From contig CAVQTC010000005.1 in assembly GCA_963716275.1 (NCBI GenBank), forward strand, positions 40,959-104,958: a stretch of DNA of 64,000 bases, in the 5' to 3' direction. Made by a program: the position numbers and the translations under genes. Of the stretch, positions 1-64,000 are shown one piece after another. A model generated the notes under the pieces. That model was not told where the DNA came from and made no database searches. It was given only the letters and a program-made list of their open reading frames with translations. The stretch is from an uncultured delta proteobacterium. GTDB taxonomy: Bacteria; Myxococcota_A; UBA9160; UBA6930. Each line of letters opens with the position of its first letter. Positions within the stretch are counted from its first letter, which is position 1.

Positions 1-2300
1 GGCCTTCGCGCTGCGGCTGCCGAGGATCGCCGGCAGCAGCAGCAGGTCCGCGAGCAGCGACGCGCCGATCGCGACGCCGGTCACGAAGCCGAAGCTCGCG
101 AGGCTCTTCCAGGGCACGAACACCAGCACCAGGAACCCGGCGGCGAGGGCGCCCGCCGAGGTGAACAGCGCGCGGCCGACCTCGCGCAACGAGGCGTCCA
201 TGGCCTGCTCCCGCGCGAGCCCTTGGCCTCGGAAGCGCTGGTAGCCCGTCAGCAGGTGCAGCGCCTCGTCCACGCCGAGCCCGAGCAGCACGGAGGCGAC
301 CATCGCCGTGCCGATATCGAGGGGGATGCCGAGGAAGCCCATCGCGCCCAGCGTGAGCAGCACGGGCCACGTGGTCGGGATCATCGCCAGCAGGGTGAGC
401 GGGATCGAGCGCAGGCAGACCCAGGTGAGCGCGGCGACGAGGGCGAGGGCGGCGCCGAAGCTCCCGATCTGGGTGTCGCGGATCTCGTCGATCATGTCGC
501 TCACCACGGCGAGCGGGCCCGTCACGATCGCGTGGGCGCCGGGAGGGAGCGCGGCGGCGACCTCGCTGCGCACGCGCTCCACCAGCGCGCGCAGCTCGTC
601 CTGCGGGAGCTTCTCGCCCTGGAAGGAGACGCGCAGCGCGGCGGGCTCGCCGCCCGTCGCCGGCGAGACGAAGAAGCCGACGAGGTCGCGCTGCTCGCCG
701 CGCATCAGCCGCAAGAGCTGGGCCGGCCGCTCTGGCAGCGCGCCTTGCCCCTCGAGCGCGAGGGGCTCGTGATGCACGAGCTCGTTCAGGTCGCGCATGG
801 GCTCGAGGATCGAGAGCGGATGGCTGAGGCCGCGCAGCGACCCGAGCCGCTCGATGCGCGCGAGCGAGGCCAGCGCCGGGAGCGAGTCGGGCTTCATGCC
901 CGGCGGGAGGAACACCGCCACCTCGAGCGTGTCGCCGCCGCGCAGCACGCGGGCCTCGCGCGCCCAGCGCACCACCTGGCTGCCCTCGCCGTAGAGCTGC
1001 TCGAAGCGCGCGTCGATCGAGAGCTCGCGCATGCCCACGAAGCTCAAGACCACCGAGGCGAGCGCCCCGAGCAGGATCGCGGCGCGGCCGCGACCCACGC
1101 GATCGGCGATCCCGTGCACCCAGCGCCGCCAGGTCGCCTGGGAGCGCGGCACCGAGATCCAGCGCGCCGGCAGGCGCACCAGCACGATCGGGAGCAGCAC
1201 GAAGGTCGCGCTGAACGCGGCCAGCACGCCGAAGGCGGAGATCCAGCCGAAGCGGACCAGGCTCTGGAGCCCGCTGTTGTAGAACGAGGCGAAGCCCGCG
1301 GCCGTCGAGAGCGCCGTGAACAAGCTCGGCCGCCCGACCTCGGCGAGCGTGCGCCCGAGCACGGCGGCGCGCGCCGCGCGGTCCCCCTGCTCCTCCTCGC
1401 TCGCGAGGTGCTCGGCGTAGGTCGAGATGACGTGGATGCCGTAGCAGACGCCGATCGTCAGCATGAGCGGTGGGCAGCACCTGGAAGAAGCTCGTGCGCG
1501 GCCAGCCGAGCCAGCCCTGGAGGCCGATCGCCCAGAGCAGCGCGAGGCCCGCGGTCGCGAGCGCGAGCAGCGCCGGCGCGACGGAGCGGAAGGCGAGCAG
1601 CAGGATCACGCCGACCAGCGCGACGATGCCGGGCACCAGACGCTGCACCTGCTGATCGAGCTCGCGCCCCGCGACCACGAACTCCACCGGCCCGCCCACG
1701 AGCGCGAACCGGAAGCCCTGCGCCTCGAAGCGCGCGAGCAGCGCGCGCGCCCCGTCCACGGCGCGCTCGGCCGTGGCGCCGGACGTATCGGTGAGCTGCA
1801 CGAGCACGGCGCCGGCGCGCCCGTCGGCCGAGATGATCTGGCCCACCCAGGCGGGATCGCGCAGCGCGCGTGGGGCGAGCTCGCGCAGGTCCGGCGGCGG
1901 GCTTTCCGTCCGGCGCGAGCTGGCGGGCGCGGGGCAGATCGAAGAGCTCCGGCGCGAGCAGCGGGCTCGTGGCCGGCCCCTCCACGTGGCGCACGCCGGG
2001 AAGCGCAGCGAGCGCGACCGCCACGTCGTGCGCCATCGCGAGCGCGCTCGCGTCGAACACGCTCCGGCACGGCGCCGGGGCCTCGCAGCGGAAGACGATC
2101 GCGAACGGCACGCCGCCGCCGAAGCGCGCGGCCACGGTCTCGAGCTCGCGCACCATGGGATGGTCGGCGCCCAGGAGCGCGCGGTAGCCGGTATCGACGC
2201 CCACGCGCAGGGCGCCCGCCGCGAGCGCGAGCGTGAACGCCGCCGCGATGAGCAGCACGACGAGCGGACGGCGCAGGCAGGCATAGAAGAGCTGCAGCAT
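1..2300 (-). pseudogene. RND-superfamily MMPL/HpnN-like lipid exporter; 3' end runs off the window; frame changes twice
   Basis: The N-terminus is in ORF 1458..2300 (MLQLFYACLRRPLVVLLIAAAFTLALAAG..., one TM then a periplasmic loop) and turns to Arg/Ala junk after about 130 aa. My reverse-complement reading continues the protein in the other two minus frames, with shifts near 1890 and 1475. The frame is open from about 1475 to base 1 and ends ...FVPWKSLASFGFVTGVAIGASLLADLLLLPAILGSRSAKA. The start at 2298-2300 lies 6 nt after the upstream stop. Confidence 0.7.
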
Positions 2301-2306
2301 CGAGCC

Positions 2307-3369
2307 TCAGCCCTCGCCCGCAGCACGGCGCAGCAGCGCTTCGAAGAGTCCTGGCGACCGCGCGAGGGCGGCGAAGGCTGCGCGCCGCAGCCGCGGGCGC
2401 TCGGTCGCGAGGCGCAGGAGCCGTGCGAACGCGCGATGCGCGCGCGAGAGGCGCCGCCAGGCGCTCTCGTACGCGCTGAGCGGCGCCTCCGCGGCGATCG
2501 TCTCGGCGAGCGCGTCGGCGCAGCGCAGCGCGAGCGTGATGCCCTCGCCGGTGACCGCATCGGTGTAGCCCGCCGCATCGCCCACGAGCGCGACGCGGCC
2601 CGCGAAGCGCCGCCGCGCGGCCTGCCAGAACGGGCCCGCGCCGCGCACCGCGCTCGCCGGCTCGGCGCCGGCCAGCTTGGCCGCGAGCTGCGGGAACTGC
2701 TCCACGAGCAGGGAGGCGTAGTCGCGCCCATCGGCTTCGTGGAGCACGGCGATGCCCACTTCGTCGGGCGCCACCGGGGTCACGTAGGCCTCCGCGCCGT
2801 CGCGGAAGGTAGACCTCCACGTAGGCGCTCCACGGCGCGAGCCGAAAGTGGCGGCGCAGACCGAAGCGGCGCGAGCGCACGGGCAGCGCGAGACCGGCGC
2901 GCGCGCGCACGCGGCTCCCGAGGCCGTCGGCCCCCACCAGGAAGCGCGCGCGGAGCTCGCCGCGCGAGGTGCGCGCGCACACGCGCCCCTCGCGCTCCGC
3001 GAAGTCGAGGAGCTCGCACTCGCTCTCCACCGCCACCCCCGCGCGCGCGGCGGCGGCGCGCAGCGCGGCGGAGAGGCGCGTGCGGCGCACGCCGAGGCCA
3101 GCGCCGCTCGCGAAATCGCCGGCGAGCTCGTGCGCGCCCTCGAGGAAGCGCACACCGCGGAAGGGCGCCCCGCCTAGCTCCTCCGCTCCCACGCCCAGGG
3201 CCGCGAGCGCGCGCACACCGGGCGGCATGATTCCTTCGCCGCACGCCTTGTCGAGCGGTCCGGCGCGCCGCTCGATCACGCGGGCGGAGACCCCGCGTCG
3301 CGCGAGCGCGATCGCGGTGGCGAGCCCCGCCGGCCCGGCGCCGACGACGAGGACGTCAACGTCGGACAC
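2307..3369 (-). pseudogene. FAD-dependent hydroxylase/oxidoreductase (FtpE/SrsC-like position); one frame disruption
   Basis: About 187 N-terminal aa are in ORF 1606..3369 (MSDVDVLVVGAGPAGLATAIALARRG, GxGxxG). The C-terminal part is in ORF 2307..3155 (GDAAGYTDAVTGEGI). The span is 1063 nt (3n+1), with the shift near 2808. Confidence 0.75.
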
Positions 3370-5092
3370 GCTGGAACGCGCGCCGGGAGCGCAGCAGCTC
3401 GAGGGCGAGGCGCGGGAGCGAGGCGGGCGGCGGCGCGGCGAGCGCGCCGGCGAGCTCGAGGCGAAGGGCCTCGGCGCGCCGGATCTTGCCGCTCGAGGTG
3501 CGCGGCAGCGTCCCCGGCGCCAGCACGCGCACGCGGCTCGGTCGCAGCCCGGTGCGCTCGAGCACGCGCCGCGTCAGGGCTTCAGCGAGCGCGGCGTCGC
3601 CGGGTCCGTCGTGCGTGCGCTCGACGAACAGCCAGAGCTGCTCGCCACTGCCGTCCTCGGCGAGCGCGCCGACCGCCGCGCTGCAGCCCGCGCGCACGCC
3701 AGCGAGCCCCTCGATCGCGTGCTCGATCTCGTGGGGCGCGTGATTGCGGCCGCGCAAGATGATCACGTCCTTGCTGCGCCCGAACAGGTGAAGCTCGCCC
3801 TCGAGCAGGAAGCCTGTGTCCCCGGTGTCGAGCCAGCCGTCGACCAGCACGCGCTTCGTCTCTTCGGGCAGGCCGTCGTAGCCCTGCATCAAGGAGGGGC
3901 CGCGCACGCGCACCCGGCCGAGCCGGCCCTCGGGAAGCGCGTCGCCGTGCGCGTCGACGATCTCCACGGCGAAGCCCGGGAGGGGCGGGCCGAGGGCCAC
4001 GATCGGCTGTCCCGCATCCAGCGCGCGCGCCTCGCCGCGCTCGGCGAGGGCGCGCGCGTCGAAGTGGCGCACCCGGAAGCGCTCGCGCAGCGCGCTGAAC
4101 GTGACGGCCAGCGCCGCCTCGGCGAGCCCGTAGACGGGCGTCAGCGCCTCGGGCGCGAGGCCGTAGGGCGCGAAGCGCGCGAGGAAGCGCGCGAGCACCG
4201 CGGGCGTCACCGGCTCGGCGCCGTTCATGGCGACGCGCCACGAGGAGAGATCGACGCCGGCGAGCTCCGCGTCTTCGATGCGCGCGGCGCAGAGCGCGTA
4301 GGCGAAGTTCGGCGCCGGGCTGATCGTCGCGCGTCGGCGCGAGATGGCGCGCAGCCAGAGCGCCGGCCGCGCAATGAACTGCTCCGGAGGGATCAGCACG
4401 AGGTCGCGCTCGTGGAAGAGCGTGGTGAACACGCCGCCCACCAGTCCCATGTCGTGATAGAGCGGGAGCCAGCTCACCGCCGAATGACGGAAGCCCGCAC
4501 TTTCGGGGTAGGCGGCGAGGATCGCGCCGCCGATCGCGTCCACGTTCGCGAGCACCTGGCGATGCGTGAGGGCGACCGGCCGCGGAGTCTGCGTCGTGCC
4601 CGACGAGAACTGGATGAAGGCGAGCGCGTCGGGGTCGGGGGCGCTCACGGCGAGCGGCGCCGCCGGGAGCTCCTCGAGGCGCGCGCAGCCGAGGGCGGGG
4701 CGCGCGCGCTCGATGGTGCGGCCGAGCACGCGCCGCGTGCGCGCGTCGGAGAGCACGAGCCGCACGCGCGCCGCCCCGAGCATCGCCGCCGTCCGCTCGT
4801 GGTATTCGGCCAGCCGGCCGAGGCGCACCGGCGGATAGAGCGGGACCGGGATGGCGCCGGCCGCGAGCGCGCCGAAGAAGCCGTCGAAGAACTCCGGCCC
4901 GGTCGCGGCGATCACGGCGACGCGGTCGCCCGGCGCCACGCCCCGCGCGACCAGCCCGCCGGCGGCGCGCTGCGCGCGCGCGAAGAGCTCGGCGTGGGGA
5001 AGCGCGAGCTCGCGCTCGCGCGCATCCAGGAAGCGGATGCAGCCGTCGCTCCGCGCCGCGCGCTCGAGGCGCGAGATCAACGTGTCAGGCAT
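3356..5092 (-). CDS. Fatty acyl-AMP ligase (FAAL) family adenylating enzyme
   Basis: Intact 578-aa ORF. Adenylation cores are present: FSSGTTQTPRPV, YGLAE, GRSKDVIILRGRNHAPHEIE and SSGKIRR. It lies next to a stand-alone ACP, and its start overlaps the ACP stop by 8 nt. Confidence 0.85.
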   Translation of the reverse strand: MPDTLISRLERAARSDGCIRFLDARERELALPHAELFARAQRAAGGLVARGVAPGDRVAVIAATGPEFFDGFFGALAAGAIPVPLYPPVRLGRLAEYHERTAAMLGAARVRLVLSDARTRRVLGRTIERARPALGCARLEELPAAPLAVSAPDPDALAFIQFSSGTTQTPRPVALTHRQVLANVDAIGGAILAAYPESAGFRHSAVSWLPLYHDMGLVGGVFTTLFHERDLVLIPPEQFIARPALWLRAISRRRATISPAPNFAYALCAARIEDAELAGVDLSSWRVAMNGAEPVTPAVLARFLARFAPYGLAPEALTPVYGLAEAALAVTFSALRERFRVRHFDARALAERGEARALDAGQPIVALGPPLPGFAVEIVDAHGDALPEGRLGRVRVRGPSLMQGYDGLPEETKRVLVDGWLDTGDTGFLLEGELHLFGRSKDVIILRGRNHAPHEIEHAIEGLAGVRAGCSAAVGALAEDGSGEQLWLFVERTHDGPGDAALAEALTRRVLERTGLRPSRVRVLAPGTLPRTSSGKIRRAEALRLELAGALAAPPPASLPRLALELLRSRRAFQRVRR

Positions 5093-5336
5093 ACGGCGGT
5101 CCGCTGGCCCGCGCCCGCTCGATCCACGCCACGAGCTCGCCGATCGTGGTGACCTCGCGGTCTTCCTCGGGCTCGAGGCACACGGAGAAGTGGTTCTCGA
5201 TCTCGACCACGAGATCGAGCTGCTCGATCGAGTCGAGGCCGAGATCGGCGACGAGCGCGGTCTCGGGCGTCAGCTCCCAATCGTTGTGGAGGCGATCCCG
5301 CACCAGGCGCTGCAGCTCGGCGAGCGTCTCGCTCAT
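5085..5336 (-). CDS. Stand-alone acyl carrier protein
   Basis: These are the last 83 aa of ORF 5085..5774, starting at ATG 5334-5336: MSETLAELQRLV...DLGLDSIEQLDLV, with the phosphopantetheine Ser in DSI. The upstream part of that ORF is Arg/Pro junk. Confidence 0.85.
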   Translation of the reverse strand: MSETLAELQRLVRDRLHNDWELTPETALVADLGLDSIEQLDLVVEIENHFSVCLEPEEDREVTTIGELVAWIERARASGPPYA

Positions 5337-5905
5337 CGCGCGCTCCGCAGGTGGGGCGCGAGCCGCGGGCGGTCGCCGAGCCGCGCCGCGTAGCCGCAGT
5401 GCTCCGCGAGCGCGCGCTCCTCCACGCGGATGCGCACGCGCAAGAGCGCGGCGTTCGCCACGCTGAAGACCAGCGCCGTCAGATAGGCGCCGTGGATCAG
5501 CGGCAGTGCGATGCCCTCGAGCACGACGGCCAGATAGTTCGGATGGCGAAGCCAGCGGTAAGGGCCGTCCACCACGACGGGCAGACCCGGCACGACGATC
5601 ACGCGCACGTTCCAGCGCGGCCCGAGCGTGGCGATCGCCCAGTAGCGAAGCGCCTGGGCGAGCCCGGCGAGGAGCGCCATCGGGATGCCCAGCGCCGGGA
5701 CGAAGGGCCGATCGAGCACCACGACTTCGAGGGCCGCGCCGGCCAGCAGGCCCACGTGGAGCGCCGCCATCCACGGGAAGTGGGAAGCGCCGACCTCGAT
5801 GCCGCCCTGCGCCAGGGCCGCGCGCGCGTTGCGGCGCGAGAGGCGCAGCTCGAACATCCGCTCGAGGCCCACCGCGGCGAGGAGCGCGAGGTACGCGCTC
5901 ACCAT
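5333..5905 (-). CDS. ICMT/PEMT-family integral-membrane methyltransferase
   Basis: These are the last 190 aa of ORF 5333..7768, starting at ATG 5903-5905. The protein has several hydrophobic spans and the RHPNYLAVVLEGIALPL signature. An ATGA overlap joins it to the ACP start. Confidence 0.8.
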   Translation of the reverse strand: MVSAYLALLAAVGLERMFELRLSRRNARAALAQGGIEVGASHFPWMAALHVGLLAGAALEVVVLDRPFVPALGIPMALLAGLAQALRYWAIATLGPRWNVRVIVVPGLPVVVDGPYRWLRHPNYLAVVLEGIALPLIHGAYLTALVFSVANAALLRVRIRVEERALAEHCGYAARLGDRPRLAPHLRSAR

Positions 5906-6943
5906 CGCAGCAGCACCAGCTCCGAGCAGAAGCCCGGGCCCATCGCGAGCAGGAGGCCGAGCGTGCCCGCCGGCGGGCGCTCGGCGAGCGCGTCGGCGAG
6001 CAGGAAGAGCACCGATGCGCTCGAGAGATTCCCGACGCGCGCGAGGTGCTCCCACGAGGCCGCCAGCGCGCTCGGCGGCAGCGAAAGCGCGCGCTCGACC
6101 GCGGTCAGCACCTTGGGCCCGCCGGGATGGCAGATGAAGCGCTCGATCTCGGCGAGCGCGACGCCCTGCTCCGCGAGGAACTTGTCCACGTCGGGCCGGA
6201 TCCCCGCGGCGAGGTTCGGCACGTCGGCGGAGAGGAGCACGCGGAAGCCGCCGTCGCCGACCTCCCAGCCCATCACGCGCTCGGTGTCCGGGTAGAGCAC
6301 CGAGCGGGTGGCGAGGATACGCGGTCCAGTGCCCGGCGCTCGGGCGCCGCGCAGGACGACCGCGGCGGCACCGTCGCCGAACAGCCCGCTCGCGATCACG
6401 TTCGCGACCGACACGTCCTCGCGCTGGAGCGTGAGACTGCAGAGCTCCACCGAGAAGAGCAGCGCGGTCTGGTCCGGGAACGCGCGCAGGTAGTCGGCTG
6501 CGCGTGCGAGCCCCGCGGCGCCCCCGACACAGCCCAGCCCGAAGAGGGGCGTGCGCTTCACGTCGGCGCGCAGGCCGATGCGGTTGGCGAGCCGGGCGTC
6601 CAGCGAAGGGGCGGCGATGCCGGTCACCGTGGTCGAGAAGACGTGGTCCACCTGGGCGGGCGTGAGATCGGCTTGCGCCAGCGCCTCGCCCGTCGCGCGC
6701 TCCGCGAGGAGCGAGGCCCTCGCGAATCCACGCGTCGTTGGCGTCCCCGAAGCCACGAAGCTTCTCGTACTCCTCGATCGGGAGCGCCAGATGACGCCCA
6801 CCGACGAGAACGTTGCGGTGAATCTCCTCCAAGCGGTGGGGATTGTGGAAGCGCCCCTTCCACAGCCGAGCGAGGGCGCCGAGCAGCTCGTCCTGGTCGT
6901 AGTAGTGAGCCGGCAGCGCGCAGGCTGCGGAGAGGATCTTCAT
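5899..6943 (-). pseudogene. Type III polyketide synthase; one frame disruption
   Basis: The N-terminal ~75 aa (MKILSAACALPAHYYDQDELLG...DANDAWIRE) are in the frame of ORF 5333..7768, and the rest is in ORF 5899..6801. The catalytic Cys (FGLGCVGGAAGL), His (FICHPGGPKV) and Asn (VGNLSSASV) are all present. The span is 1045 nt (3n+1), with the shift near 6715. Confidence 0.85.
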
Positions 6944-7707
6944 CGGCTCTCGATCTCCTTGGGCCCCAGGCGCGGCAGCCAGTAGGGGACGCTCGCCTGG
7001 TAGCGACGGTAGCCGTTGGGGTCGCGGGCGATGTAGCGGCGCTCCTTCAGGCGCGGACCGAGCCAGCAGTACGCGGTCCAGAGCGTCGCGAGGAGCAAGC
7101 GGTCTTGCGAGACGACGGGTCCCGTCCAGAGCGTGAGTGCGAACGCCAGATAGATGGGCTGGCGCGTGAAGGCGAAGAGGCCCCGCGTGGAAAAGGGGCG
7201 GTAGCGGGGGCGCCGACCGCGCGCCACGGCTCCCCAGCCCAGAAAGCCGAGCTGGAGATCGAGGCCCGCGTCGCGCATCGCCCACATCACGAGCGCCCAG
7301 GAGCCGCCGAAGGCGAGCTCGCTCACCAGGCGCCAGGCTCCCTCGAGTCGAAAGGGCGACGGATCGAGCGGCGACCACACCGCGAACGTGAGCGCGACCT
7401 GGAGCGACGCGAGGAGCACGAAGCTGGTCGTCGCGAGATCGCGACCGAGCGGCGTGCCTCCGAGCAGCCGCTGCCCACGGCGCGTGAGCAACGCGGAGTG
7501 CAGCAACGGAAACTGCAACCCCAGCGCCGCGTCGGCGGCCCAGGCCGGGATGCCTCCGAGCCCGCCGGCCCCGAAGCGCAGTCCCTCGTGGAGGCTCGCG
7601 ATCATCGCGGCCACCGCCAGCGCGAAGGCGCCGTGGCACGCGATCCCGAGGCCGACCGCGAGTCCGCGCTGGGCAGTCGAGTATCCCGCATGGGCGTTCG
7701 CCCCCAT
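6940..7707 (-). CDS. Multi-pass membrane protein, methyltransferase-fold (NnrU/DUF1295/ICMT-like)
   Basis: These are the last 255 aa of ORF 6940..8328, starting at ATG 7705-7707. The protein is hydrophobic throughout and carries the motif FTRQPIYLAFALTLW. An ATGA overlap joins it to the PKS start. Confidence 0.65.
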   Translation of the reverse strand: MGANAHAGYSTAQRGLAVGLGIACHGAFALAVAAMIASLHEGLRFGAGGLGGIPAWAADAALGLQFPLLHSALLTRRGQRLLGGTPLGRDLATTSFVLLASLQVALTFAVWSPLDPSPFRLEGAWRLVSELAFGGSWALVMWAMRDAGLDLQLGFLGWGAVARGRRPRYRPFSTRGLFAFTRQPIYLAFALTLWTGPVVSQDRLLLATLWTAYCWLGPRLKERRYIARDPNGYRRYQASVPYWLPRLGPKEIESR

Positions 7708-7724
7708 GTCCGACACGCGCGCGA

Positions 7725-8344
7725 CTAGGAGCGCGCCGTCGTTGCGACGCCGGCAGCGGGCGCCGCATCCAGCTTCACGTCGACCTCGACGCGCACGCGA
7801 TCCTCGACGCGGATGAAGCCCATCACCGTCGGCGCCTCGAGGCCGAAGTCGGCGAGCGAGACGTCGAAGGCCGCTCGGAAGCTCGCGTGCTTGCCGGGCT
7901 CCTCCTGCCAGCGCGAGACCAGCGGCACGAGGCGCCGCTCGCGCTCGCCGATGCGCAGCGTGAAGGCGAGCGAGTCCGCCGAGGCTGCGGTGTGCGCGGC
8001 GGCTCGCAGCGCGTCGGGTGCGACGTGCTCGAACTGGGCGACGATGCGCGGGTGGTGCTCGGCGTCGAACATCAGGCGCATGCGGTTGTCGCGCGCCGAG
8101 ATGCCCGTCTTCATCTGCGCCACCGCCACATCGACGCGCGCGCGGTAGGCGCCATCGCGGCCGGGGGCTCGACGGCGAAAGCCGCGCAGGGCGCCTCGCC
8201 CTCGAAGTCGTGCATCGTGGAGGAGGCGAAGAAGCGCACGGAGCAGCTGCCCGAGACGGAGATGGCGTCCGCGCGGGCGCGCGCTCCGAGCGCCAACATC
8301 CCCAACAAGAGCGCGGCGCCAGCAACAACTCGAGCGCGCGACAT
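7725..8344 (-). pseudogene. Secreted YceI-like lipid/polyisoprenoid-binding protein; frame disrupted
   Basis: The signal peptide MSRARVVAGAALLLGMLALGARARA and ...SSTMHDFEGE are in the tail of ORF 8111..8959. The rest (MKTGISARDNRMRLMFDAEHHPRIVAQF...FIRVEDRVRVEVDVKL) is in ORF 7725..8129. The span is 620 nt (3n+2), with the shift(s) between 8130 and 8165. Confidence 0.6.
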
Positions 8345-8506
8345 GACCACCTCCGAGCGTCTCCCCACAGAAACCGCTCCCAACCCTAGGGGTTCCCGGG
8401 GTATTTGCCCGCGTGAACGAATTGGAATGTTTGTCCCATCTCGCCCCGGGAGCGCGCGCGAGCCCGAGCCGAGGTAACCTGCCGCACTTCCCTGCAGGAG
8501 CGACCC

Positions 8507-9276
8507 ATGAGCGGCGTCGGCGAGCTCTTCGACTTGAGCGGAAAGGTGGCGGTCGTCACCGGCGGGAGCCGCGGGCTCGGGCGCGAGATGGTGCTGGCCT
8601 TCGCGCGCGCTGGCGCGGACGTGGTGATCGCGAGCCGCAAGCTCGAGAGCTGCGAGCGGCTCGCGGAGGAGGTGCGCAAAGAAACCGGGCGGCGCGCGCT
8701 CCCGGTCGCGTGCCACGTGGGAGACTGGGCGCAGAACGAGCGGCTCGCCGCGGTCGCTTACGAGCAGTTCGGCCACGTCGACGTGCTCGTGAACAACGCC
8801 GGCATGTCGCCGCTCTACGACCACGTCGTGAACGTGAGCGAGGCGCTCTACGACAAGGTGCTCGACGTCAATCTGAAGGGCCCCTTCCGGCTGACGGCGC
8901 TGATCGGCACGCAAGATGGTCGAGGCCGGCCGCGGCTCGATCATCTTCGTCTCGAGCACGCGGCTCGCTCCACCCGCGCGGGAGCATCATCACCTACGCC
9001 GCCGCGAAGGCGGGCGTGAACGCGATGACCACGGGCTTCGCCCACCACTTCGGTCCGCGCGTGCGCGTGAACTGCATCCTGCCCGGGCCGTTCCTGACGG
9101 ACATCTCGAAGGCCTGGGATCTCGACGCCTTCGAGAAGCGCGCGCAGACCGACATCTTCCTGAAGCGCGGCGGCCAGCCCAACGAGATCGTCGGCGCCGC
9201 GCTCTACTTCGCGAGCGACGCCTCGAGCTTCACGACCGGCGCGCACCTCGAGGTGTGCGGCGGCGGGATCGGGTGA
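8507..9276 (+). pseudogene. SDR-family oxidoreductase; two frame disruptions
   Basis: VVTGGSRGLG and NNAG are in ORF 8507..9019. MVEAGRGSIIFVSS is in ORF 8916..9497. YAAAKAG and the C-terminus (...ALYFASDASSFTTGAHLEVCGGGIG) are in ORF 8413..9276. The shifts lie near 8915 and 8958-8975, and the span is 3n+2. Confidence 0.75.
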
Positions 9277-9919: not shown

Positions 9920-10032
9920 GACGCCTCCGCAGCGACAAGAGTAGAGTGGCCGCGGCGGCCGATCGGTGGCAGCACATTGCGCTGATCTGTGACGGCCGAC
10001 TGGCCGAACGTCGTAAACCTGCGTTCGGTCGC

Positions 10033-11223: not shown

Positions 11224-11340
11224 GGTGGCGGTCCCTCCCGCCTCCACTTTATCACGTTTAAATTGGGGAGTTCGTTCACGAAATACGAGGGACCGGAAGC
11301 GGACGCCTCCGGACGGCCTGGGGTCCTCGGCGGCGGCGGC

Positions 11341-12099: not shown

Positions 12100-12162
12100 C
12101 GGCCGCGCAGGGTAGGGGGCCGGTGAGCGCGCCCGCCAGAGGCTCGGGCATACTGCGGCGCC

Positions 12163-13323
12163 ATGGTTCACCGCCCCGCGCGAGGATCGGGCCCGCGACG
12201 CCACGGGGGCGAGGTGCCGCAGCTCTCCGGCATCCCGCCCGCGACGCTCTCCGCCGAGGTCTACCGCGACCCGGCGCGCTACGAGCTCGAGCGCGAGCGC
12301 GTGCTGCGGCGGAGCTGGCTGATCGCCGGGCGCAGCGACGAGATCCCGCGGGCCGGCGACCACCTGCTCTACGAGGGCCACGGCGAGACGGTCGTGGTCG
12401 TGCGCCAGCCCGGCGGGAGCGCGCGGGCCTTCCACAACGTCTGCCAGCACCGCGGCGCGCGCATCGCGCGGGCGTGCGGCCGCGGCGCCAGCAAGTTCGT
12501 GTGCCCCTGGCACGGCTGGACCTACGACACGGACGGTCGCCTGGCCGGCGTCCCCGATCGCCGCGATTTCGCGGCCTCCCAGCTCGCGGGCCTGCGCGCA
12601 CCGGCGGTCGCCGTCGAGGAGTGGGCGGGCTGGATCTGGATCTTCCTGACGGCCGACGAGGCCCCGCCGCTCTCCGCATGGCTGGGCGAGATGCAGACCG
12701 AGCTCGCCGCTTACCGCATGGAGGAGATGTTCGTCTTCGAGAGAGCGGTCTACGACGTGCCTTGCAACTACAAGGCGATCGTCGACGGCTTCAATGAGGC
12801 CTACCACATCGCCGAGCTCCACAAGGTGCCCGGCGAGGTGGTGCGCGCGAGCCGCGAGACTTCTTACGCAGCGCTCGGCCGCCACAGCCTGATGATCGTG
12901 CCGCTCGACCCGTCCACGCTCGCGCAGCTCCAGGCGACGGGCGACCACCAAGGCACCGTCACCTGCCACTACGCGCTCTTCCCGAACGCGGTGTTCAACA
13001 ACCTGCCCGAGCACCTGCAGCTCTTCCAGCCCATTCCGACCGGGCCCCACAGCTCGCGCTTCGTGTGCTGGGAGCTCCAGTACAAGGACGGCGACGCCGC
13101 CTACCGCAAGTACGTCGAGACCGCCTGGGGCTTCCTCAAGCAGGTGGTCGAGCAGGACGTGTTCGTCTTCAACGAGCTCTCCGCCACGCGCGAGTCGATG
13201 GGCTACATCGCGAATCGCTTCAGCGAGCGCGAGTGCAAGCCGACCGCTTATCACGAGGAGATGGCGCGCCTGCTCGGCTCCGGGGCCCCGCAGCGCATTG
13301 CGAAGGGAGACCCGCTCCGATGA
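12163..13323 (+). CDS. Rieske [2Fe-2S] non-heme-iron oxygenase, alpha subunit (second paralog)
   Basis: Intact 386-aa ORF with CQHRGARI...CPWHGWTY and NYKAIVDGFNEAYHIAELH. Its stop overlaps the next start (ATGA at 13320-13323). Confidence 0.85.
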   Translation: MVHRPARGSGPRRHGGEVPQLSGIPPATLSAEVYRDPARYELERERVLRRSWLIAGRSDEIPRAGDHLLYEGHGETVVVVRQPGGSARAFHNVCQHRGARIARACGRGASKFVCPWHGWTYDTDGRLAGVPDRRDFAASQLAGLRAPAVAVEEWAGWIWIFLTADEAPPLSAWLGEMQTELAAYRMEEMFVFERAVYDVPCNYKAIVDGFNEAYHIAELHKVPGEVVRASRETSYAALGRHSLMIVPLDPSTLAQLQATGDHQGTVTCHYALFPNAVFNNLPEHLQLFQPIPTGPHSSRFVCWELQYKDGDAAYRKYVETAWGFLKQVVEQDVFVFNELSATRESMGYIANRFSERECKPTAYHEEMARLLGSGAPQRIAKGDPLR

Positions 13324-14960
13324 CGATGCAGCGCACGCCCTTGATCCTCTCGCGCATCCTGGAGCGCGGGGCCCGCGTCGCGCCCAACGAGCAGGTCGTC
13401 ACCAAATTCCCCAACGGCTTGCACCGCCAGACCCTCGCGCAGACGCGCGCCCGCGCCGCCCAGCTCGCCAACGCCCTCGCGGCCGATGGCGTTCGCGGCG
13501 GCGAGCGCGTGGCGAGCCTGCTCTGGAACAACCACCGCCACCTGGAGATGTATCAGGCCCTCCCGAGCATGGGCTGCGTGCTCCACACGCTGAACCTCCG
13601 TCTCGCGGTGGGCGAGCTCCAGTACATCATCAACCACGCCGAGGACGCGGTGATCGTGGTCGACCAGAGCCTGCTCGCGACCCTCGAGCAGCTCGCCGGC
13701 AAGCTTCCCAGCGTGCGGCGCGTGATCGTCGCCGCCGAGCCGGGCGCCGGGCCCTGGCAGTCGAGCCTGCCGGGCGCGGTGGACTACGAGCAGTTCATCG
13801 CCTCGCAGTCGCGCGAGATCGAGTGGCCCGAGCTCGACGAGAACGCGCCGATGGGCCTTTGCTACACGAGCGGCACGACCGGCGATCCCAAGGGCGTGCT
13901 GTACACGCACCGCTCCACGTACTTGCACACGCTGGCGCAGTGCATGACGGACTCGATGAATCTCTCGTCCCAGGACGCGCTGCTCCAGATCGTGCCGATG
14001 TTCCACGCGATGGGCTGGGGGGCGCCCTTCAGCACGCTCACGCTCGGCGCAAAGGTCGTGCTGCCCCACCGCTTCATGGATCCGAAGAGCCTGGTCGAGC
14101 TGATGGCGGGCGAGGAGATCACGATCTCGCTGGGCGTCCCCACCATCTGGCAGGGCGTCCGGGCGCTGCTCGAGCAGTGCCCCGGCCAGTACGACCTGCG
14201 CGCTCTGACGCGCGTCACTTGCGGCGGGTCGGCGCCGCCGGTCTCCTTGATCCGCTGGTATTGGGACACGCTGGGCGTCGAGATGATCCAGGGCTGGGGC
14301 ATGACCGAGACCAACCCGCTCGTCACCGTCTCGCGCCGCGTCGCGAAGCGCGGCCAGCGCAGAGCCCTCGCCGAGGAGCATCTCGCCAATCAGGCGAAGG
14401 CCGGCCAGGTGATCCCCGGCATCGACGTCGCGATCATGGACGAGCAGTGGAACCCGCTCCCCCACGACGGCAAGTCGGTGGGCGAGGTGGTGGTGCGCGG
14501 CCCCTGGATCTGCTCGGCGTACTACAAGAACCCGCAGCCCACGAAGTTCCACGACGGCTGGCTCGTGACGGGCGACGTCGGCATGATCGATCCCGAGGAG
14601 TACCTGATCATCACGGACCGCTCGAAGGACCTGATCAAGTCCGGGGGCGAGTGGATCAGCTCGGTGGATCTCGAGAACCACATCGTCGGCCTCGCCGGCG
14701 TGGCCCAGGCCGCGGTGGTGGGGGTGGCGCACCCGAAGTGGGACGAGCGGCCCGTGGCGCTCGTGGTGCGCGCAACCGGGAGCGCACTCAGCGCCGCCCA
14801 GGTGCTCGCCCACTGCGAGGGCCGCTTCGCCAAGTGGCAGCTCCCGGACGACGTGCTGTTCCGGGACGCGATTCCCCTCACCTCGACTGGCAAGATCGAC
14901 AAGAAGGCGATTCGCGCGGCCTTGGCCGTCGAGCACTACCGGCTCCCCGACCAGCGCTGA
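13320..14960 (+). CDS. Acyl-CoA synthetase (AMP-forming, long/medium-chain type)
   Basis: Starts at ATG 13320 (MTMQRTPLI) inside ORF 13065..14960. Motifs are CYTSGTTGDPKGVLYTH, GWGMTET, ITDRSKDLIKSGGEWISS and TSTGKIDKK. Confidence 0.88.
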   Translation: MTMQRTPLILSRILERGARVAPNEQVVTKFPNGLHRQTLAQTRARAAQLANALAADGVRGGERVASLLWNNHRHLEMYQALPSMGCVLHTLNLRLAVGELQYIINHAEDAVIVVDQSLLATLEQLAGKLPSVRRVIVAAEPGAGPWQSSLPGAVDYEQFIASQSREIEWPELDENAPMGLCYTSGTTGDPKGVLYTHRSTYLHTLAQCMTDSMNLSSQDALLQIVPMFHAMGWGAPFSTLTLGAKVVLPHRFMDPKSLVELMAGEEITISLGVPTIWQGVRALLEQCPGQYDLRALTRVTCGGSAPPVSLIRWYWDTLGVEMIQGWGMTETNPLVTVSRRVAKRGQRRALAEEHLANQAKAGQVIPGIDVAIMDEQWNPLPHDGKSVGEVVVRGPWICSAYYKNPQPTKFHDGWLVTGDVGMIDPEEYLIITDRSKDLIKSGGEWISSVDLENHIVGLAGVAQAAVVGVAHPKWDERPVALVVRATGSALSAAQVLAHCEGRFAKWQLPDDVLFRDAIPLTSTGKIDKKAIRAALAVEHYRLPDQR

Positions 14961-20287: not shown

Positions 20288-20717
20288 ATGAGGAACCGCT
20301 GGGTCAAGCGTCTCGCGCTCGCGGTCGCCGCCTACGTCGGGCTCGTCGTGGCCTTCGAGTCGCTGGTTCTGTTCATGGGCAAGCGCCAGGCCGAGCGCGG
20401 CCTCCAGCCTGGAGAGAGCTGGATCGCCCTCACGACCACCGACGCGGCGGGGCCGCACGTCACCGTCATCGCCGGCGTCGAGGTCGATGGCCAGCTCTAC
20501 GTCTCGGCCAATCACTGGCCACGCGGCTGGTACCACCGCGCGCTTGCGCACCCAGACGTCGAGGTCGAGCGGGCCGGTAAGCGCGCGCCGTATCGAGCGG
20601 AGCCCGTGGAGGGGCCCGAGCGCGCGCGGATCGCCGAGCGATACCGCCTGCCCGTCGGTGATTCGAGTCCTCGCCGGGTTCCCGCCGCGGTCGTTCCTGC
20701 GCCTCGTTCCGCGCTAG
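20288..20717 (+). pseudogene. DUF385/deazaflavin-dependent nitroreductase-like split-barrel protein with N-terminal TM; one frame disruption
   Basis: The first 122 aa are in ORF 20288..22003 (…YVSANHWPRGWYHRALAHPDVEVERAGKR…ERYRLP). The tail VIRVLAGFPPRSFLRLVPR is in ORF 20487..20717. The span is 430 nt (3n+1), with the shift near 20655. Confidence 0.55.
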
Positions 20718-25323: not shown

Positions 25324-25337
25324 CGACGGCGCGCGCC

Positions 25338-46232: not shown

Positions 46233-46303
46233 GGTTCGCCCGCGCCGCTGGTTGTCCCTCCAGCGGCGCGGGCGGCCTCGATCGCGAACCATCGGAGGTC
46301 CCC

Positions 46304-51515: not shown

Positions 51516-52354
51516 GGGGCGCCTCGCGGCCGCACGCGCGGGAACTCGGGATGCCGGAACGGCTCGCCGGGCGCGAGCCGGCCCGGGAGGAGCTGGAACA
51601 CGCTCGTGGCGCGCGCCTCCGGGATCGAGACGCTGGTGAGCGCGGTGCGCGGCACGTAGCGCGCGTCGGCCCCGAAGAAGCGCAGCGACACGGTGCGGCG
51701 CCGCTGACCGGCGCGCGTCGCGGCGCCGCCGTGGAGGAGGCCGGGGTGGAACGCGACCACGTCGCCGGGCTCGACGGCGAAGCCGACGATGTCCCATTTC
51801 TCCCGCTCGGCCTCGATGTTCGGCAGGCGCGGCAGCGAGCCGTCCCCGTAGAGCGGGGCCGTGTCGTCCTGCGGGTCGAAGCGCGAGCCGTCGTAGAGCG
51901 GCCCCCGATGCGATCCCCGCACGAACTCGAGGGCGTTCGCGCGCGGGACCGCGTCGAAGGAGATCCACAGCACGGCGAGCTGCGCGCCGTCCACCGGCAG
52001 ATAGGAGGAGTCCTGATGCCAAGGCGTGCGCCGCGTGTCGCCGCCTTCCTTCAGGAAGACCTGCTCGTACATGAACCACACGTCGGCCGCGCTCCAAAGA
52101 AGCGCCGCGAGATCGGCGGCCGGGGAGTCGTGCACGAGGTCGCGGTAGGCGGGCTGCGCCTCCCGGTTGGCGAGATCCTGATAGAAGAGGCCGCCTCCTT
52201 CGTACCGCGAAGCGCTGGGGCTCGGGTGCGCGAGGCTCCACGCATAGGCGCGCTCGGCCAGCGCGAGGGCGCGCGCGTCGAGCGCGCCGCGCAGGCAGAC
52301 GACGCCGTCGGCCGCGAAGGCGGCCTGGAGATCGCGCTCGGTCGCGTCACGCAA
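51503..52354 (-). CDS. Phytanoyl-CoA dioxygenase (PhyH) family Fe(II)/2-oxoglutarate oxygenase
   Basis: Intact 283-aa ORF with PWHQDSSY (HxD) and the distal His in FHPGLLHGG. It overlaps the convergent gene by 13 nt. Confidence 0.75.
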   Translation of the reverse strand: MRDATERDLQAAFAADGVVCLRGALDARALALAERAYAWSLAHPSPSASRYEGGGLFYQDLANREAQPAYRDLVHDSPAADLAALLWSAADVWFMYEQVFLKEGGDTRRTPWHQDSSYLPVDGAQLAVLWISFDAVPRANALEFVRGSHRGPLYDGSRFDPQDDTAPLYGDGSLPRLPNIEAEREKWDIVGFAVEPGDVVAFHPGLLHGGAATRAGQRRRTVSLRFFGADARYVPRTALTSVSIPEARATSVFQLLPGRLAPGEPFRHPEFPRVRPRGAPQTT

Positions 52355-53498
52355 GCTGGTAGATCCGCCGCACGTTGTCGCCGAGCAGCTTGGCGCGCGT
52401 CGTGGGGCTGAGGGTCGAGACGTAGCGCTCGAGGTCCGGCACCCAGGTGTGCGGGTGGTCCGGGTGCGGGTAGTCGGTGGCCCACATGAAGCAGTCCGCG
52501 CCGACGTGGTCGATCGTGTAGGGCGCCGCGGTCTCGTCGGGATCGCCCGAGATGAAGCACTGGCGGCGGAAGTAGTCGCTGGCGGTCGGGCGCGAGGCGG
52601 CGCCGCGGCGATTCATCGCCCGGAAAAGCGCCTCGAAGCGGTCGAGGAAGGCGCCCATCCAGCCGCTGCCCACCTCGAGCACGCCCACGCGCAGCTCCGG
52701 GAAGCGGTCCAGCGTGCCGAGCGTGAAGAAGGAGAAGAAGGCCTCCTGGGAGAGCGCGCGCAAGCGGATCAGGTCGCCGATGCCGCGCGTCTGGCCCGGC
52801 CAATCGAAGTTGCCGGGCGCCATCTCGAGCGGTGTGAAGGTGGGATGGATCGCGAGCGGCACGCCGAGCCGGCTGCACGCCGCGAAGATCGGGTCGTGCT
52901 CGGGGCTCCCGTGCACGATGCGCCGGTGGTTGAACGGATTCACCCAGGCGCCGCGGCAGCCGTCGCGCGACCGCGCGCTCGAGCTCCTGCGCGGAGCCCT
53001 CGGGATCGAGCAGCGTGAGCTGCGCGATCGGCACCAGGCGCCCCTTCGTGTCGCGGCAGAAGTCGGCGATCCAGCGGTTGTACGCGCGCGCGTAGGCGAG
53101 CGAGAGCTCCGGGTCGGTGACCTCGCACTCCCAGAGCAGGCCGATCGTGGGGTAGAGGAGCGCCTTCTCGAGGTTCTCCTGGTCGAGGAGATCGACGCGC
53201 TGCTTCGGGTCCGAGGCGCCGTACGGGAAGCTCTCGGCATAGCGGCGGTCCGGGCGGGGCATCATGTCCTCCTCGCCCATCGCTCCGAGCAGACCGAGCG
53301 AGCCCTTGACCGTCCGCTTCGAGGGCTTGCCGTCGATCTCGAGGTACTCGTAGCCCTGCGCGTCGGTCTGGATGCGCATGCGCCCGCTCGCGGAAGCGCG
53401 CCTCGAGGTAGTTGCTCCCACAGGTCCGGCGGCTCGAGCACGTGGCCGTCCGCGTCGATGGTGCCGGGGTAGGGGAAGCGCCGAATCTCGTAGGCCAT
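52347..53498 (-). pseudogene. Amidohydrolase_2-family hydrolase (paralog); frame leaves and returns
   Basis: MAYEIRRFPYPGTIDADGHVLEPPDLWE is in ORF 53262..53498. The middle part is in ORF 52051..54273. The C-terminal part (WATDYPHPDH) is in ORF 52347..53240. The shifts lie near 53410 and 52975, and the total span is 3n. Confidence 0.75.
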
Positions 53499-60710: not shown

Positions 60711-60845
60711 CCGGTCCTCGCTACTTGTTCGGGTCCTTTGCCTCGCGCCGAGCTTTCGCCAGCAATTTGCGCAAAAGATCCGTTGAGCGCAGCGCAAGCT
60801 TGGCACAGAATGCCGGCCGCCCGCACGCCCAGGAGATCCACACGC
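60711..60845. promoter_or_regulatory. Divergent control region (LLM gene and TonB receptor 2) with a perfect palindrome
   Basis: TTTGCGCAAA at 60766-60775 is a perfect 10-bp palindrome. Confidence 0.45.
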
Positions 60846-63294
60846 ATGCGACGAGCTCTCTTCGCCTCGGCCCTCGCCTTCGCCCTCGCGGCGCCCACCC
60901 TCGCGCAGGAGGCGAGCCAACCGCAACCGACGCCGGCCGCGCAGCCCGCGGCCGAGCCTCAGCGCGGCGGGGTCGAGGAGATCATCGTCACCGCCGAGAA
61001 GCGCGCGACGAACCTGCAGGAGACGCCGGTCGCGATCACCGCGATCACGAGCGACGCGATCGAGCAGCAGGGCATCGAGGACTTCAACGACGTTCAGTTC
61101 ATGGCGCCGGCGCTGGTCTACGGCGAGATCGCCGACATGGCGCAGATCACCATGCGCGGCATCGGCGTCGACATCTCGACGATCGACGCCGAGCCCGGCG
61201 TCGCGCTCCACCAGGACGGCGTCTACCGCGGCGGCCTGGTCTCCTCCTCGGCGCTCTTCTTCGACGCCGAGCGCGTCGAGGTGCTGCGCGGGCCCCAGGG
61301 CACCCTCTACGGCCGCAACTCGACCGGCGGCAGCCTGAACGTGATCACGAAGCTGCCGGGGGACGACCCTCGCCTCGAGGGCCACGTCCTCTACGGCGAC
61401 TACAGCCGCTGGCGCGCTGAGGTGGCCGGCGACCTCCCGTTGATTCCCGAGGTGCTGAGCGTGCGCGGCGCCTTCGCTTACGACTCGCGCGGGGGCTACA
61501 CCGACAACCACTTCACCGGGAACGAGGAAGACGACGCGCGCTACCGGCAGGCCAAGCTCGCGGCCGTCTTCACGCCCACCGAGAGCCTCGAGCTCGACTT
61601 CCGCTTCAACTGGCTCTCCAGCGACTACGGCGGCCCGCCCTTCATCAAGACCGACGACCACGCGGCGGCGCCTCTCTTCATCAGCGGCAACAACCCGGGT
61701 GGGGTCCTCGCGGGTTTGCCCGGCATCTCGCCTCCCGGCATCTGCTCTCCGGGAGCAGATCGGTTGAATCCGAATGGTGCGTGCAACAACACCAAGGACC
61801 CGCGCAACGTCTTCTACGAGGGCGACCAGGAGTACATCCGGGACGCCTGGGACTTCAACACGACCGTCACCTGGAATGCGACGGACGACATCGCGGTCAA
61901 GTGGATCTCGTCCTACCTCGATCTGGACCAGGACCTGAATCCGTCCAACAACGACGGCATCGACATCCAGCTCCTGACCGGCGACTACGAGCAGTTCAAT
62001 ACGGAGTGGTCGCAGGAAGTCGACGTGACCGGCAGCGCCTTCGACAGCCGGCTCGATTGGCTCGGCGGCTTCTTCTACTACCACGCCGACACGTCCGAGG
62101 TGTACCGCTACACGCTCCCGGCGCTGCAGATCACATACGAATGGCTGTTCTCCACGTTCCCCGGCCTCGGGTTCTGCGCTCCGACGCCGACCGGACCCAC
62201 CACGGCAACGCCTTCGAACTGTCTGGCTCTCTTCGGGACGAAGCTGGATGGCACGACGTCGCCGGTCCCCTTTCTGGAGTTCTCTCTCGACCAGGACCTG
62301 ACCTCCTGGGCGCTGTTCACCCAGGAGACCTTCCACGTCACCGACTGGCTGCGCGTGACGGGCGGCTTCCGCTGGACGAAGGACGAGAAGGTCGACGTTC
62401 ACTCGCAGGTGCTGAATCTCGGCGCTCCCGGCTGCCGCGACCTCGAGTCGACCCAGACCTGGAGCGAGCCCACGGGCAAGCTCGGCGTGGACGCCGACGT
62501 GGGCGAGGACACGATGGTCTACGCGAGCTACTCGCGGGGCTTCAAGGCCGGCGGCTACAACGTCGGCACCTGCGGCGACCTCTACGACCCGGAGTTCGTG
62601 AACGCCTACGAGATCGGCGAGCAAGACGACCTGGCTCGAGAACACGTTGCTCGTGAACATCTCGGCCTTCTACAACGACTACACGGACTACCAGGCCCGC
62701 CTGTTCGTGAACAACGCGGCGATCGTGGACAACGCCGCGGACGCCGAGACCTACGGCATCGAGGTGGAGTCGACGTGGGTCCCCGTGGAGGCCGCGCGCT
62801 TCGATCTCTCGGTCTCCTTCCTGAAGGCGAAGTTCAAGGAGTTCCTGGCCACCGACCCGATGAATCCGGATCAAGGCGCGAACTGCAATCTCGCGGGCCT
62901 CGACTGCCTGAAGGACGTCTCCGGCAAGAACCTGCTGCGCGCGCCCGAGTGGAAGCTCAGCCTCGCCGGGCAGTACGCCTTCGATCTCGGCAACCTCGGC
63001 ACGGTCACACCGCGCGCCGAGTACGCCTACACGAGCGAGCAGTTCCACACCGTCTTCAACAACGCGTTCGGCCGCCAGGAGGGGTACTCGATCGGCAACC
63101 TCCGCCTGATGTGGGATCTCCCCGAAGCCTGGGTGCACGGCGTCAGCTTCCAGGCCTTCGTCGAGAACATCGGCGACGTGGACTACGTGACGAACAAGGC
63201 GCCGAACGCGACGACGGGCAGCACGCTCTCGACCTTCGGCCCGCCGCTCACCTGGGGCGTGCAGCTCAACTACACCTGGGGCGGCAACGGCTAG
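60846..63294 (+). pseudogene. TonB-dependent outer-membrane receptor (paralog 2); one frame disruption
   Basis: Starts at ATG 60846 after AGGAG. The signal peptide is MRRALFASALAFALAAPTLAQE. Motifs include VEEIIVTAEKR, VLRGPQGTLYGRNS and GGFRWTKDEK. The C-terminal 215 aa are in ORF 62647..63294. The shift lies near 62619, and the span is 2449 nt (3n+1). Confidence 0.82.
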
Positions 63295-63458
63295 GAGCCA
63301 GACCCAAGATGGGCAAGCTCGCCTCGCCGCCGATCCATCGCCGCCAGCGGCGTTGCGCTCCCTGCGGCGTAACACACGCTACGCCTCGGTCGCGCGCCTT
63401 GCTGGCGGCGCGTCTCGGCGGCGAATGCTTCGCTTCCCATCTTGGGTCGGGCTCCTAG
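63291..63458. repeat. 168-nt extended imperfect palindrome filling a convergent intergenic gap
   Basis: The outer arms are CTAGGAGCCAGACCCAAGATGGGCAAGC (63291-63318) and GCTTCCCATCTTGGGTCGGGCTCCTAG (63432-63458), with one indel and one mismatch between them. Inner complementary blocks include GCCGCCAGC with GCTGGCGGC. Confidence 0.55.
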
Positions 63459-63461
63459 CGG

Positions 63462-64000
63462 CTAGCGCGCGATCTTGAAGTGATCGCGGATCAGCGCGAG
63501 CACCGCGCCGTCGGGAAGTAGCCGGCGGCCGAGCGGCACGAGCCGCGCGTCGGCGCCCACCGGGTAGCGGACGCGGGGCCGGCGCGCCGAGAGCGCGTGC
63601 AGGATCGCGCGCGCCGCGACCGCGGGCGGCGGCGCCTTCGGCAGGAGCTCGCGGATCACGCGCTCGGTGCTCCGGATCGCCGCGCCGTAGGGTGAGCGCT
63701 CGCGCGGCTCGCCCCAGTCGGTGGCGTCGTTGAAGGCTGGTGGCGAGGTCGCCCGGCTCGATCAGCGCGACGTGGACGCCGAAGCCGCGCAGCTCGTTGT
63801 GGAGCGAGCCTGCGAGGGCGTCCAGGGCGCCCTTGGTCGCCGAGTAGTGGGCCTGGAAGGGGATCGGCGCGCGCCCCGCGAGGGACCCCACGATCGCGAT
63901 GCGGCCCGCGCGCGCCTCGCGCAGCGGCGGGATCACGGCGCGCAGCGTGTGCAGCACCCCGAACACGTTGGTCTCGAACTGCGCGCGCGCGCGCGCCATC
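63462..64000 (-). pseudogene. SDR-family oxidoreductase, 5' end beyond the window; one frame disruption
   Basis: ORF 63379..63999 reads ...IAIVGSLAGRAPIPFQAHYSATKGALDAL...ALIEPGD (YxxxK). The C-terminus is in ORF 63462..63659. The shift lies near 63745. Confidence 0.7.

Follow-up and report, generated by a model that had tools for sequence, protein, structure and literature searches.

Are the many broken genes of an uncultured bog bacterium dying genes, or were their reading frames interrupted in the assembly? The question is raised by a 64,000-nucleotide stretch (the window; positions 40,959 to 104,958 of contig CAVQTC010000005.1, contig C5 of genome G000) from an uncultured delta proteobacterium. 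The genome is a metagenome-assembled draft of 4.30 Mb in 20 contigs, with 71.5% G+C and no N. A preliminary description of the window, made from its letters alone, had named 14 frame-disrupted genes: those for an MMPL transporter, a flavin adenine dinucleotide (FAD)-dependent hydroxylase, a type III polyketide synthase (PKS), a YceI-like protein, two short-chain dehydrogenases (SDR), a cytochrome P450, a Baeyer-Villiger (flavin) monooxygenase (BVMO), a DUF385-like protein, two TonB-dependent receptors, two Amidohydro_3 amidohydrolases and an Amidohydrolase_2 protein. Our analysis gives a probability of roughly 0.9 that the extra bases are insertion-biased, bursty consensus errors of a long-contig metagenome assembly and that the genes are not pseudogenes; the living bacterium almost certainly carries all fourteen unbroken. 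This reading is preferred because the events occur at a similar rate across the genome, are nearly all of +1 direction, strike housekeeping genes, come without other signs of decay and, at 9 of the 20 sites in positions 1-20000, are missing from some independent contig.

Plain open reading frame (ORF) lists were useless at such a high G+C content (238 ORFs of at least 80 amino acids in the window), and the coding frame was therefore traced by a Viterbi path based on the G+C content of third codon positions (GC3). Stop-to-stop pieces along this path were scanned against Pfam. ORFs at the syntenic loci of eight same-genus genomes (70-90% nucleotide identity) were then used as queries in our own protein-to-DNA dynamic-programming aligner, which permits frame steps and was checked with random sequence, one planted insertion and one planted deletion. 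Event counts below are given as the number of orthologue alignments showing an event over the number spanning its site. Chaining of tblastn high-scoring segment pairs yielded only 12 junctions because short segments fail the E-value threshold, and it was dropped for the frameshift-aware aligner.

We counted about 57 genes in the window from the frame path and the Pfam scans, and 34 events fell in 14 of them; 33 were one extra base and one was a net loss of a base. The 14 genes were those already named, and their disruption was confirmed both by frameshift-aware orthologue alignment and by Pfam domains whose profile coordinates run consecutively from one frame to the next in every case. The Pfam and frame-path checks of the roughly 57 genes revealed no further broken gene. 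Removal of a single extra base had been put forward as the simplest repair, and the four sites proposed for it (15972, 44683, 45280 and 47835) were recovered within 4 bases. The BVMO and Amidohydrolase_2 genes keep spans divisible by three because they carry 12 and 3 insertions, respectively, as expected from the suggestion that their shifts cancel. The comparison with orthologous loci, also suggested in the preliminary description, showed that the breaks were reproducible across same-genus orthologues, which lack the extra bases.

The events were strongly clustered. Seven gaps between events were shorter than 50 bp where 0.87 were expected for 34 events in 64 kb, and 14 were shorter than 250 bp where 4.1 were expected; none of 20,000 simulations with uniform placement matched the observed gap count at either distance. 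The densest 1,833 bp held 12 events, compared to a simulated maximum of 9, and the variance-to-mean ratio of the window events was 2.9 in 2-kb bins. Clustering was evident at two scales, as pairs 10-50 bases apart (17676/17689, 18294/18304, 53380/53414 and 8912/8961) and as bursts of 1-2 kb. The BVMO gene has 12 events in 1.73 kb and TonB-dependent receptor 1 has 5 in 1.03 kb; elsewhere in the genome, lysA has 8 in 1.1 kb and a gene at positions 27434-27993 of contig C4 has 5 in 0.56 kb. The window without the BVMO and TonB receptor 1 genes has 17 events in about 61 kb. These data bear out the earlier statements that about 12 events lie in 1.8 kb with none in adjacent longer genes, and that a uniform error process is excluded.

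The same kind of event was found throughout the genome. Frame switches were counted on the Viterbi path as same-strand changes of frame, provided that the upstream frame had no stop codon at a distance of 45 bases or less. By this metric, the genome has 1,346 switches in 4.30 Mb (31 per 100 kb), with a range of 23-78 per 100 kb over all 14 contigs longer than 17 kb, and the window has 18 in 64 kb (28 per 100 kb). The same script found four switches in 400 kb of two same-genus genomes (1.0 per 100 kb). A net +1 shift accounted for 1,073 of the 1,346 genome-wide switches. Their counts were overdispersed at every bin size (variance-to-mean ratio of 1.9 to 2.9), and 64 of 420 10-kb bins were free of any event. 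The view of the disruption as a pattern at the level of this locus therefore stands in part: the events are clustered, but overdispersed, insertion-biased events on all contigs above 17 kb show that they are not particular to it.

The direction of the events was assessed in an orthologue sample of 243 composition-filtered ORFs of at least 120 codons taken from the 400 kb of the two same-genus genomes. For 105 of these, the draft genome has a corresponding locus (identity of 62% or more over 60% or more of the length), at places unrelated to the window, and these 105 were kept and aligned with frame steps. The last three quarters of the sampled genes (85.6 kb) contained 42 events, of which 37 were +1, two -1, two +2 and one -2; 24 of the 105 genes were broken in this portion, with a variance-to-mean ratio of 2.4. 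Events in the first quarters (39, with 13 +1, 15 -1, 6 +2 and 5 -2) were excluded from the direction tally because stop-to-stop queries overrun the true start and yield spurious shifts. When they are included, the tally is 50 +1, 17 -1, 8 +2 and 6 -2 in 114 kb, and 40 of the 105 genes are broken. At roughly 0.5 events per kb of coding sequence, the whole genome would carry about 2,000 of them.

Housekeeping genes were among those struck. By NCBIfam name, the broken orthologues included lysA (8 events), tsaD (2 events), panC, ksgA/rsmA, dksA, xth and cpoB, among others, and no second copy of lysA, tsaD, panC, ksgA or dksA was found in the genome. Direct family searches recovered tsaD in three frame pieces (profile positions 1-35, 33-127 and 124-312) and lysA in at least three, and each is a single frame in genomes G001 and G004. 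Real recent frameshifts in a lineage that is losing accessory catabolic genes, with its essential genes protected by selection, would leave such genes whole and would mean that about a quarter to a third of the genes in 4.3 Mb are dead.

Other signs of gene decay were also lacking. Bacterial gene decay is deletion-biased and includes stops. After frame correction, 11 broken genes had no premature stop in 5,254 codons, the sole stop being the normal end of a gene at 48063-48065, which agrees with the earlier remark that the downstream frames remain protein-like. GC3 was 0.90-0.98 in broken genes and 0.92-0.96 in intact genes, and identity to orthologues was alike before and after each break in the 11 broken genes. 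The BVMO gene, hit 12 times, had a GC3 of 0.98 and unchanged orthologue identity. Nearby events were paired as +1/+1 and none compensated the other. The mixed lesions of true pseudogenes were thus not seen among the 34 events, of which one was a net -1, and neither was relaxed constraint. Genome decay as in Mycobacterium leprae or Sodalis likewise leaves many frameshifted genes in a preserved gene order, but the genes examined here had no premature stops or deletions (insertion elements were not searched for), kept their codon bias and orthologue identity, and included single-copy housekeeping genes. As +1 shifts make up 37 of the 42 sampled events and 33 of the 34 in the window, we consider real gene loss highly improbable. 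Of the two causes offered in the preliminary description, assembly or consensus error is retained and recent selective inactivation is not, given events that are genome-wide and insertion-biased, that strike housekeeping genes and that come without decay.

Independent metagenome contigs provided a second test of the extra bases. Positions 1-20000 of the window were compared with Logan contigs of four public runs, of which two came from a single bog study, another was a third run of the first sample and the last came from a soil study. Twelve of 42 indel rows were listed, and six of these were uncompensated single-base differences. In all six the contig was one base short, and all six (1471, 8911, 15973, 17732, 18112 and 18992) lay on predicted sites; the other six listed rows were compensated or were 3-base sets. 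Three of the listed contig pieces cover predicted sites, and they fell short by 1, 2 and 3 bases, precisely as predicted. A contig of run X3, which belongs to a different study, was 99% identical to the window (2 mismatches in 214) and 2 bases shorter over 8837-9052. None of 25 gap-free contig pieces spanned a predicted site, and the extra base was missing from some contig at 9 of the 20 sites in this part of the window, among the listed rows. A search of the metagenome collection for near-identical contigs with the BVMO piece 18305-18991 returned 80 loci, the best having 81% amino-acid identity and all being too distant for a check of the sites. Contigs 94-96% identical to the window also differed from it by 2 gaps (net 2) over 7566-8018 and 3 gaps (net 1) over 14882-15234. 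These gaps could be assigned to no frame break, and they may be errors outside genes or at gene ends, or natural strain indels.

The extra bases themselves had no common signature. Among 23 resolved insertions the inserted base was G, C, A or T, and seven adjoined an identical base. Homopolymer expansion was tried as an explanation and rejected, as the resolved insertions were not in runs. Compared to 400 kb from relatives, the genome was enriched about 1.4-2.4-fold in G/C runs of at least five, with a G+C content of 0.715 vs 0.70, and nothing was drawn from this. The lack of a signature bears on the idea that the bases are decoded by programmed +1 frameshifting or four-base codons, for which events counted as +1 and protein-like downstream frames would be natural. 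However, no common motif was apparent in the 23 resolved contexts (inspected by eye, with no formal motif search), the inserted base varied, orthologues and metagenome contigs lacked the base, and sites lay 10-50 bases apart in bursts. Decoding would also require about 2,000 sites, and its probability is negligible.

Three candidate causes of the bursts were tried and rejected. Events per 5-kb bin rose from 1.40 to 1.83 from the lowest to the highest fifth of GC content, a trend (Spearman rho 0.08, p = 0.02) too weak to account for them. Distance to contig ends made no difference, as every distance class had 1.52-1.66 events per 5 kb (rho -0.03). Paralogy with cross-mapping was the third: 31 of 100 hot 2-kb bins (at least 3 events) had a paralogous match, compared to 26 of 100 cold, event-free bins (Mann-Whitney p = 0.30). 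The last result speaks against an artefact in which reads of paralogues or related strains were drawn into the consensus or the polishing of multi-copy families such as the BVMO, TonB receptors, SDRs and amidohydrolases. Many broken genes do come from multi-copy families, the BVMO has three paralogues of 71-78% identity, and the summed depth of related contigs was high over the BVMO and SDR genes, though depth cannot rank genes. Nonetheless, no close relative of TonB receptor 1, which has five events, was found in 80 genomes of its order, and intact SDR, amidohydrolase and AMP-ligase (adenosine monophosphate-binding ligase) paralogues adjoin broken ones. An origin of this kind is very unlikely.

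A bursty mutational process could also have placed real insertions at non-repeat sites. A free-living bog bacterium would then have acquired 5-9 insertions per kb, for example through an error-prone repair patch or a mutator polymerase, with the hot stretches being repair tracts. If this were true, the population would have been caught immediately after the burst, ahead of other decay, and we regard the scenario as scarcely credible.

Under the preferred reading of consensus error, spurious single-base insertions would enter the consensus almost in one direction, with hardly any deletions, and in two regimes: a background of about 0.3 per kb and hot stretches of 0.5-8 kb with about 5-9 per kb, such as the BVMO gene, the 3' part of TonB receptor 1 and lysA. 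We infer that the assembly is long-read based; the hot stretches may be those with a consensus built from a single noisy read or a very small number of them, or those missed by polishing. The sequencing platform is likewise a matter of likelihood. PacBio continuous long reads are insertion-rich, and the random-insertion profile found here presumably fits them better than Nanopore or HiFi reads. Random distribution is a property given for errors of PacBio continuous long reads in PMC4678779.

Indel errors of long-read assemblies are a known problem. Gene-fragmenting indel errors and their correction are described in PMC12007338, where Nanopore and HiFi errors are mostly of homopolymer length and mainly deletions. 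Short-read polishing is reported to have been needed against indels from homopolymer regions (PMC9262707). Frameshift errors are reported to depress the marker completeness of long-read metagenome-assembled genomes, more so at low coverage, where indel errors worsen, and frameshift correction raised two such genomes from about 85% to 94-95% completeness (PMC8103633). The present genome resembles these cases in its genome-wide split genes, markers included, and in having long contigs with depressed completeness: its marker completeness is 80% despite only 20 contigs, compared to 83-100% in the eight same-genus genomes. It differs from them in that nearly all events are insertions, have no tie to homopolymers and are grouped in bursts of about 5-9 per kb.

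Several observations weigh against consensus error. An insertion-only profile without a homopolymer link differs from the Nanopore assembly profile in PMC12007338, and the bursts are left without an explanation by GC content, contig ends or paralogy. The metagenome comparison rests on public contigs 93-99% identical to the window, which may be other strains, rather than on the assembly's own reads; one contig was 99% identical and the others 93-97%, and this lack of full identity would be compatible with real loss. Part of the summed depth was without the gap at each site, and the part with it was 40.5 of 194.1 at 15973 and 38.3 of 190.2 at 18112. Genes at least 80% identical to their orthologues were poorer in events than the rest of the sample (6 in 20.9 kb vs 36 in 64.7 kb), and rpoB and rpoC are each one open frame. 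The 41-kb ribosomal-protein/rpoBC stretch has 1-2 candidate switches and the adjoining 8 kb has 15, a sharp contrast in density within positions 135500-185300 of contig C10 (the dense part lies at 135.5-143.8 kb). Purifying selection on real mutations would also spare rpoBC and conserved genes, as real loss predicts. A depth-dependent error rate would do so as well, if co-occurring strains share the core regions and deepen their sequencing. An event-free rpoBC is unsurprising under a bursty error model because 64 of the 420 10-kb bins have no event at all.

The individual breaks begin with four genes on the minus strand. The MMPL transporter gene (1..2319) runs off the window and has extra bases near 1474 and 1893, each present as +1 in 6/6 orthologue alignments, with the Pfam MMPL domain split over frames; a metagenome contig is one base short at 1471. 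A candidate third event at about 2283 was seen only with two loci of one relative and was left uncounted. The FAD-dependent hydroxylase gene (2313..3528) has one extra base near 2808 (+1 at 2808-2811 in 8/8 alignments), and FAD_binding_3 covers positions 1-176 of 349 in one frame. The type III PKS gene (5902..6997), which encodes Chal_sti_synt domains, has one extra base near 6703-6709: the shift was placed at 6709 in 4/4 orthologues and the inserted column, unique to the window, at 6703. Another column unique to the window, at 6950, was left uncounted, as a 97%-identical contig crosses 6950 without a gap. The YceI-like gene (7731..8377) has the net -1 near 8154 (8154-8169 in 5/5 orthologues of 50-53% identity), which reflects either the loss of one base or the gain of two at a short distance; one frame holds only profile positions 44-149.

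These genes belong to an operon-like minus-strand row over 1-8400. In transcription order, it comprises YceI, an unknown gene (6946-7719), the type III PKS, an ICMT-family methyltransferase (5336-6028), an acyl carrier protein (about 5088-5330), an AMP-ligase, the FAD hydroxylase and the MMPL transporter. The row is syntenic in seven same-genus genomes. It may resemble the PKS-methyltransferase-hydroxylase operons for alkylresorcinol-type phenolic lipids (srsABC).

Five broken genes follow on the plus strand. The first SDR gene (8507..9273) has extra bases near 8912 and 8961, both found as +1 in 5/5 orthologues, and adh_short matches positions 1-119 and then 141-190 in two frames. The cytochrome P450 gene (15480..16731) has one extra base at 15971-15973 (+1 at 15972 in 8/8 orthologues), and two contigs of run X1 are one base short at 15973. 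The BVMO gene (17577..19409) has 12 extra single bases, at 17676, 17689, 17732, 17856, 18109, 18155, 18294, 18304, 18992, 19203, 19243 and about 19405. Eleven were +1 events relative to a full-length orthologue and were repeated with seven others as far as each extends; ten were columns unique to the window in a DNA alignment with up to six orthologues. The twelfth probably lies just upstream of the TAA stop at 19407-19409, because the C-terminal LELR matches the orthologue and the TAA sits in the next frame. Contigs lacked a base at 17732, 18112 and 18992, and one contig was 3 bases shorter over 18899-19286. The DUF385/F420H2-dependent quinone reductase-like gene (20288..20717) has one extra base near 20657, found with its single orthologue (1/1); the alignment stops just before the next-frame stop at 20715-20717, and one frame holds profile positions 23-106 of 130.

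The gene for TonB-dependent receptor 1 (26750..29211) has about five extra bases, all in its 3' 1.0 kb (about 27970, 28182, 28426, 28655 and 29004). They were recurrent +1 shifts in 10 alignments with distant homologues of 33-44% identity, and their positions are approximate because no close orthologue is available. Barrel profile positions 138-230, 230-322 and 314-406 lie in three frames, in agreement with the GC3 frame path. No orthologue above 36% identity was found in 80 sampled genomes of the order, and the best matches were orthologues of TonB receptor 2; by these comparisons the gene is probably strain-specific or acquired.

Two Amidohydro_3 genes on the plus strand are broken. The first (44461..46229) has extra bases near 44680 and 45284 (2/2 and 3/3 spanning orthologues), and the second (46256..48065) has one near 47834 (6/6 orthologues), with profile positions 1-428 and then 424-471 in two frames. 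The Amidohydrolase_2 gene (52350..53498, minus strand) has extra bases near 52968, 53380 and 53414, found as +1 in 11/11, 9/9 and 9/9 orthologues, with columns unique to the window at 52969, 53379 and 53414. The gene for TonB-dependent receptor 2 (60741..63291, plus strand) has one extra base at 62619 (8/8 spanning orthologues), and its barrel profile runs from 50-278 to 281-436 in two frames. The second SDR gene (63471..64000, minus strand) runs off the window and has one extra base near 63738, present in 5/5 orthologues.

The three neighbours called intact in the preliminary description were indeed so. The AMP-binding ligase gene at 3359..5092 (minus strand) had no internal event with seven orthologues, its sole window-specific indel being of 3 bases. 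The AMP-binding ligase gene at 13320..14957 (plus strand) had none with three orthologues, its sole indel being a 3-base insertion at 14187. The double CoA-transferase III (coenzyme A-transferase) gene (35981..38437, plus strand) lies in one frame with profile positions 1-366 and had no internal event with eight homologues; events were confined to an upstream extension of three of these eight. Eight intact control genes had only 3-base indels, outside alignment ends and start regions.

Two other elements of the window were observed. An intergenic element of about 170 bp (63285-63465) lies between the TonB receptor 2 and SDR genes and has at least 12 other copies of 89-99% identity on 8 contigs of the genome, with no copy among the matches listed in the eight same-genus genomes. 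The predicted fold is a single long hairpin that is almost perfect (-123.7 kcal/mol, z = -10 vs shuffles), and the element looks like a miniature inverted-repeat transposable element (MITE) or a repetitive extragenic palindromic (REP)-like repeat. It matched no Rfam family, and an Rfam scan of the window gave no family at threshold. Three genes for AsnC/Lrp-type regulators (24319-26456 and 53544-54569), two of them adjacent, encode two helix-turn-helix (HTH) and two ligand-binding domains each, and the copies are about 70-73% identical to one another in DNA.

The frame breaks of the window are thus a case of the well-known indel errors of long-read assembly, unusual in that their profile is insertion-only and bursty, and they are not a biological feature. 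The 80% marker completeness of the genome is probably an underestimate, and about a quarter to a third of its genes are expected to appear as fragments or pseudogenes in annotation. If the genome serves as a species representative, protein databases would inherit the errors in the form of truncated sequences. An error profile that is bursty, limited to insertions and not tied to homopolymers is useful to know when filtering such assemblies. The preliminary description held that the breaks affect functional inference, including whether the PKS operon works. They do bear on it, but in the reverse sense, as a frame break here is no argument for inactivity. Pathway inactivity should not be claimed from frame breaks for the type III PKS operon, the BVMO/P450/Rieske catabolic genes or the TonB receptors. 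For inference of function in this bacterium, the PKS operon (1-8400), the Rieske, P450, BVMO and CoA-ligase genes, the amidohydrolases and both TonB receptors should be treated as intact.

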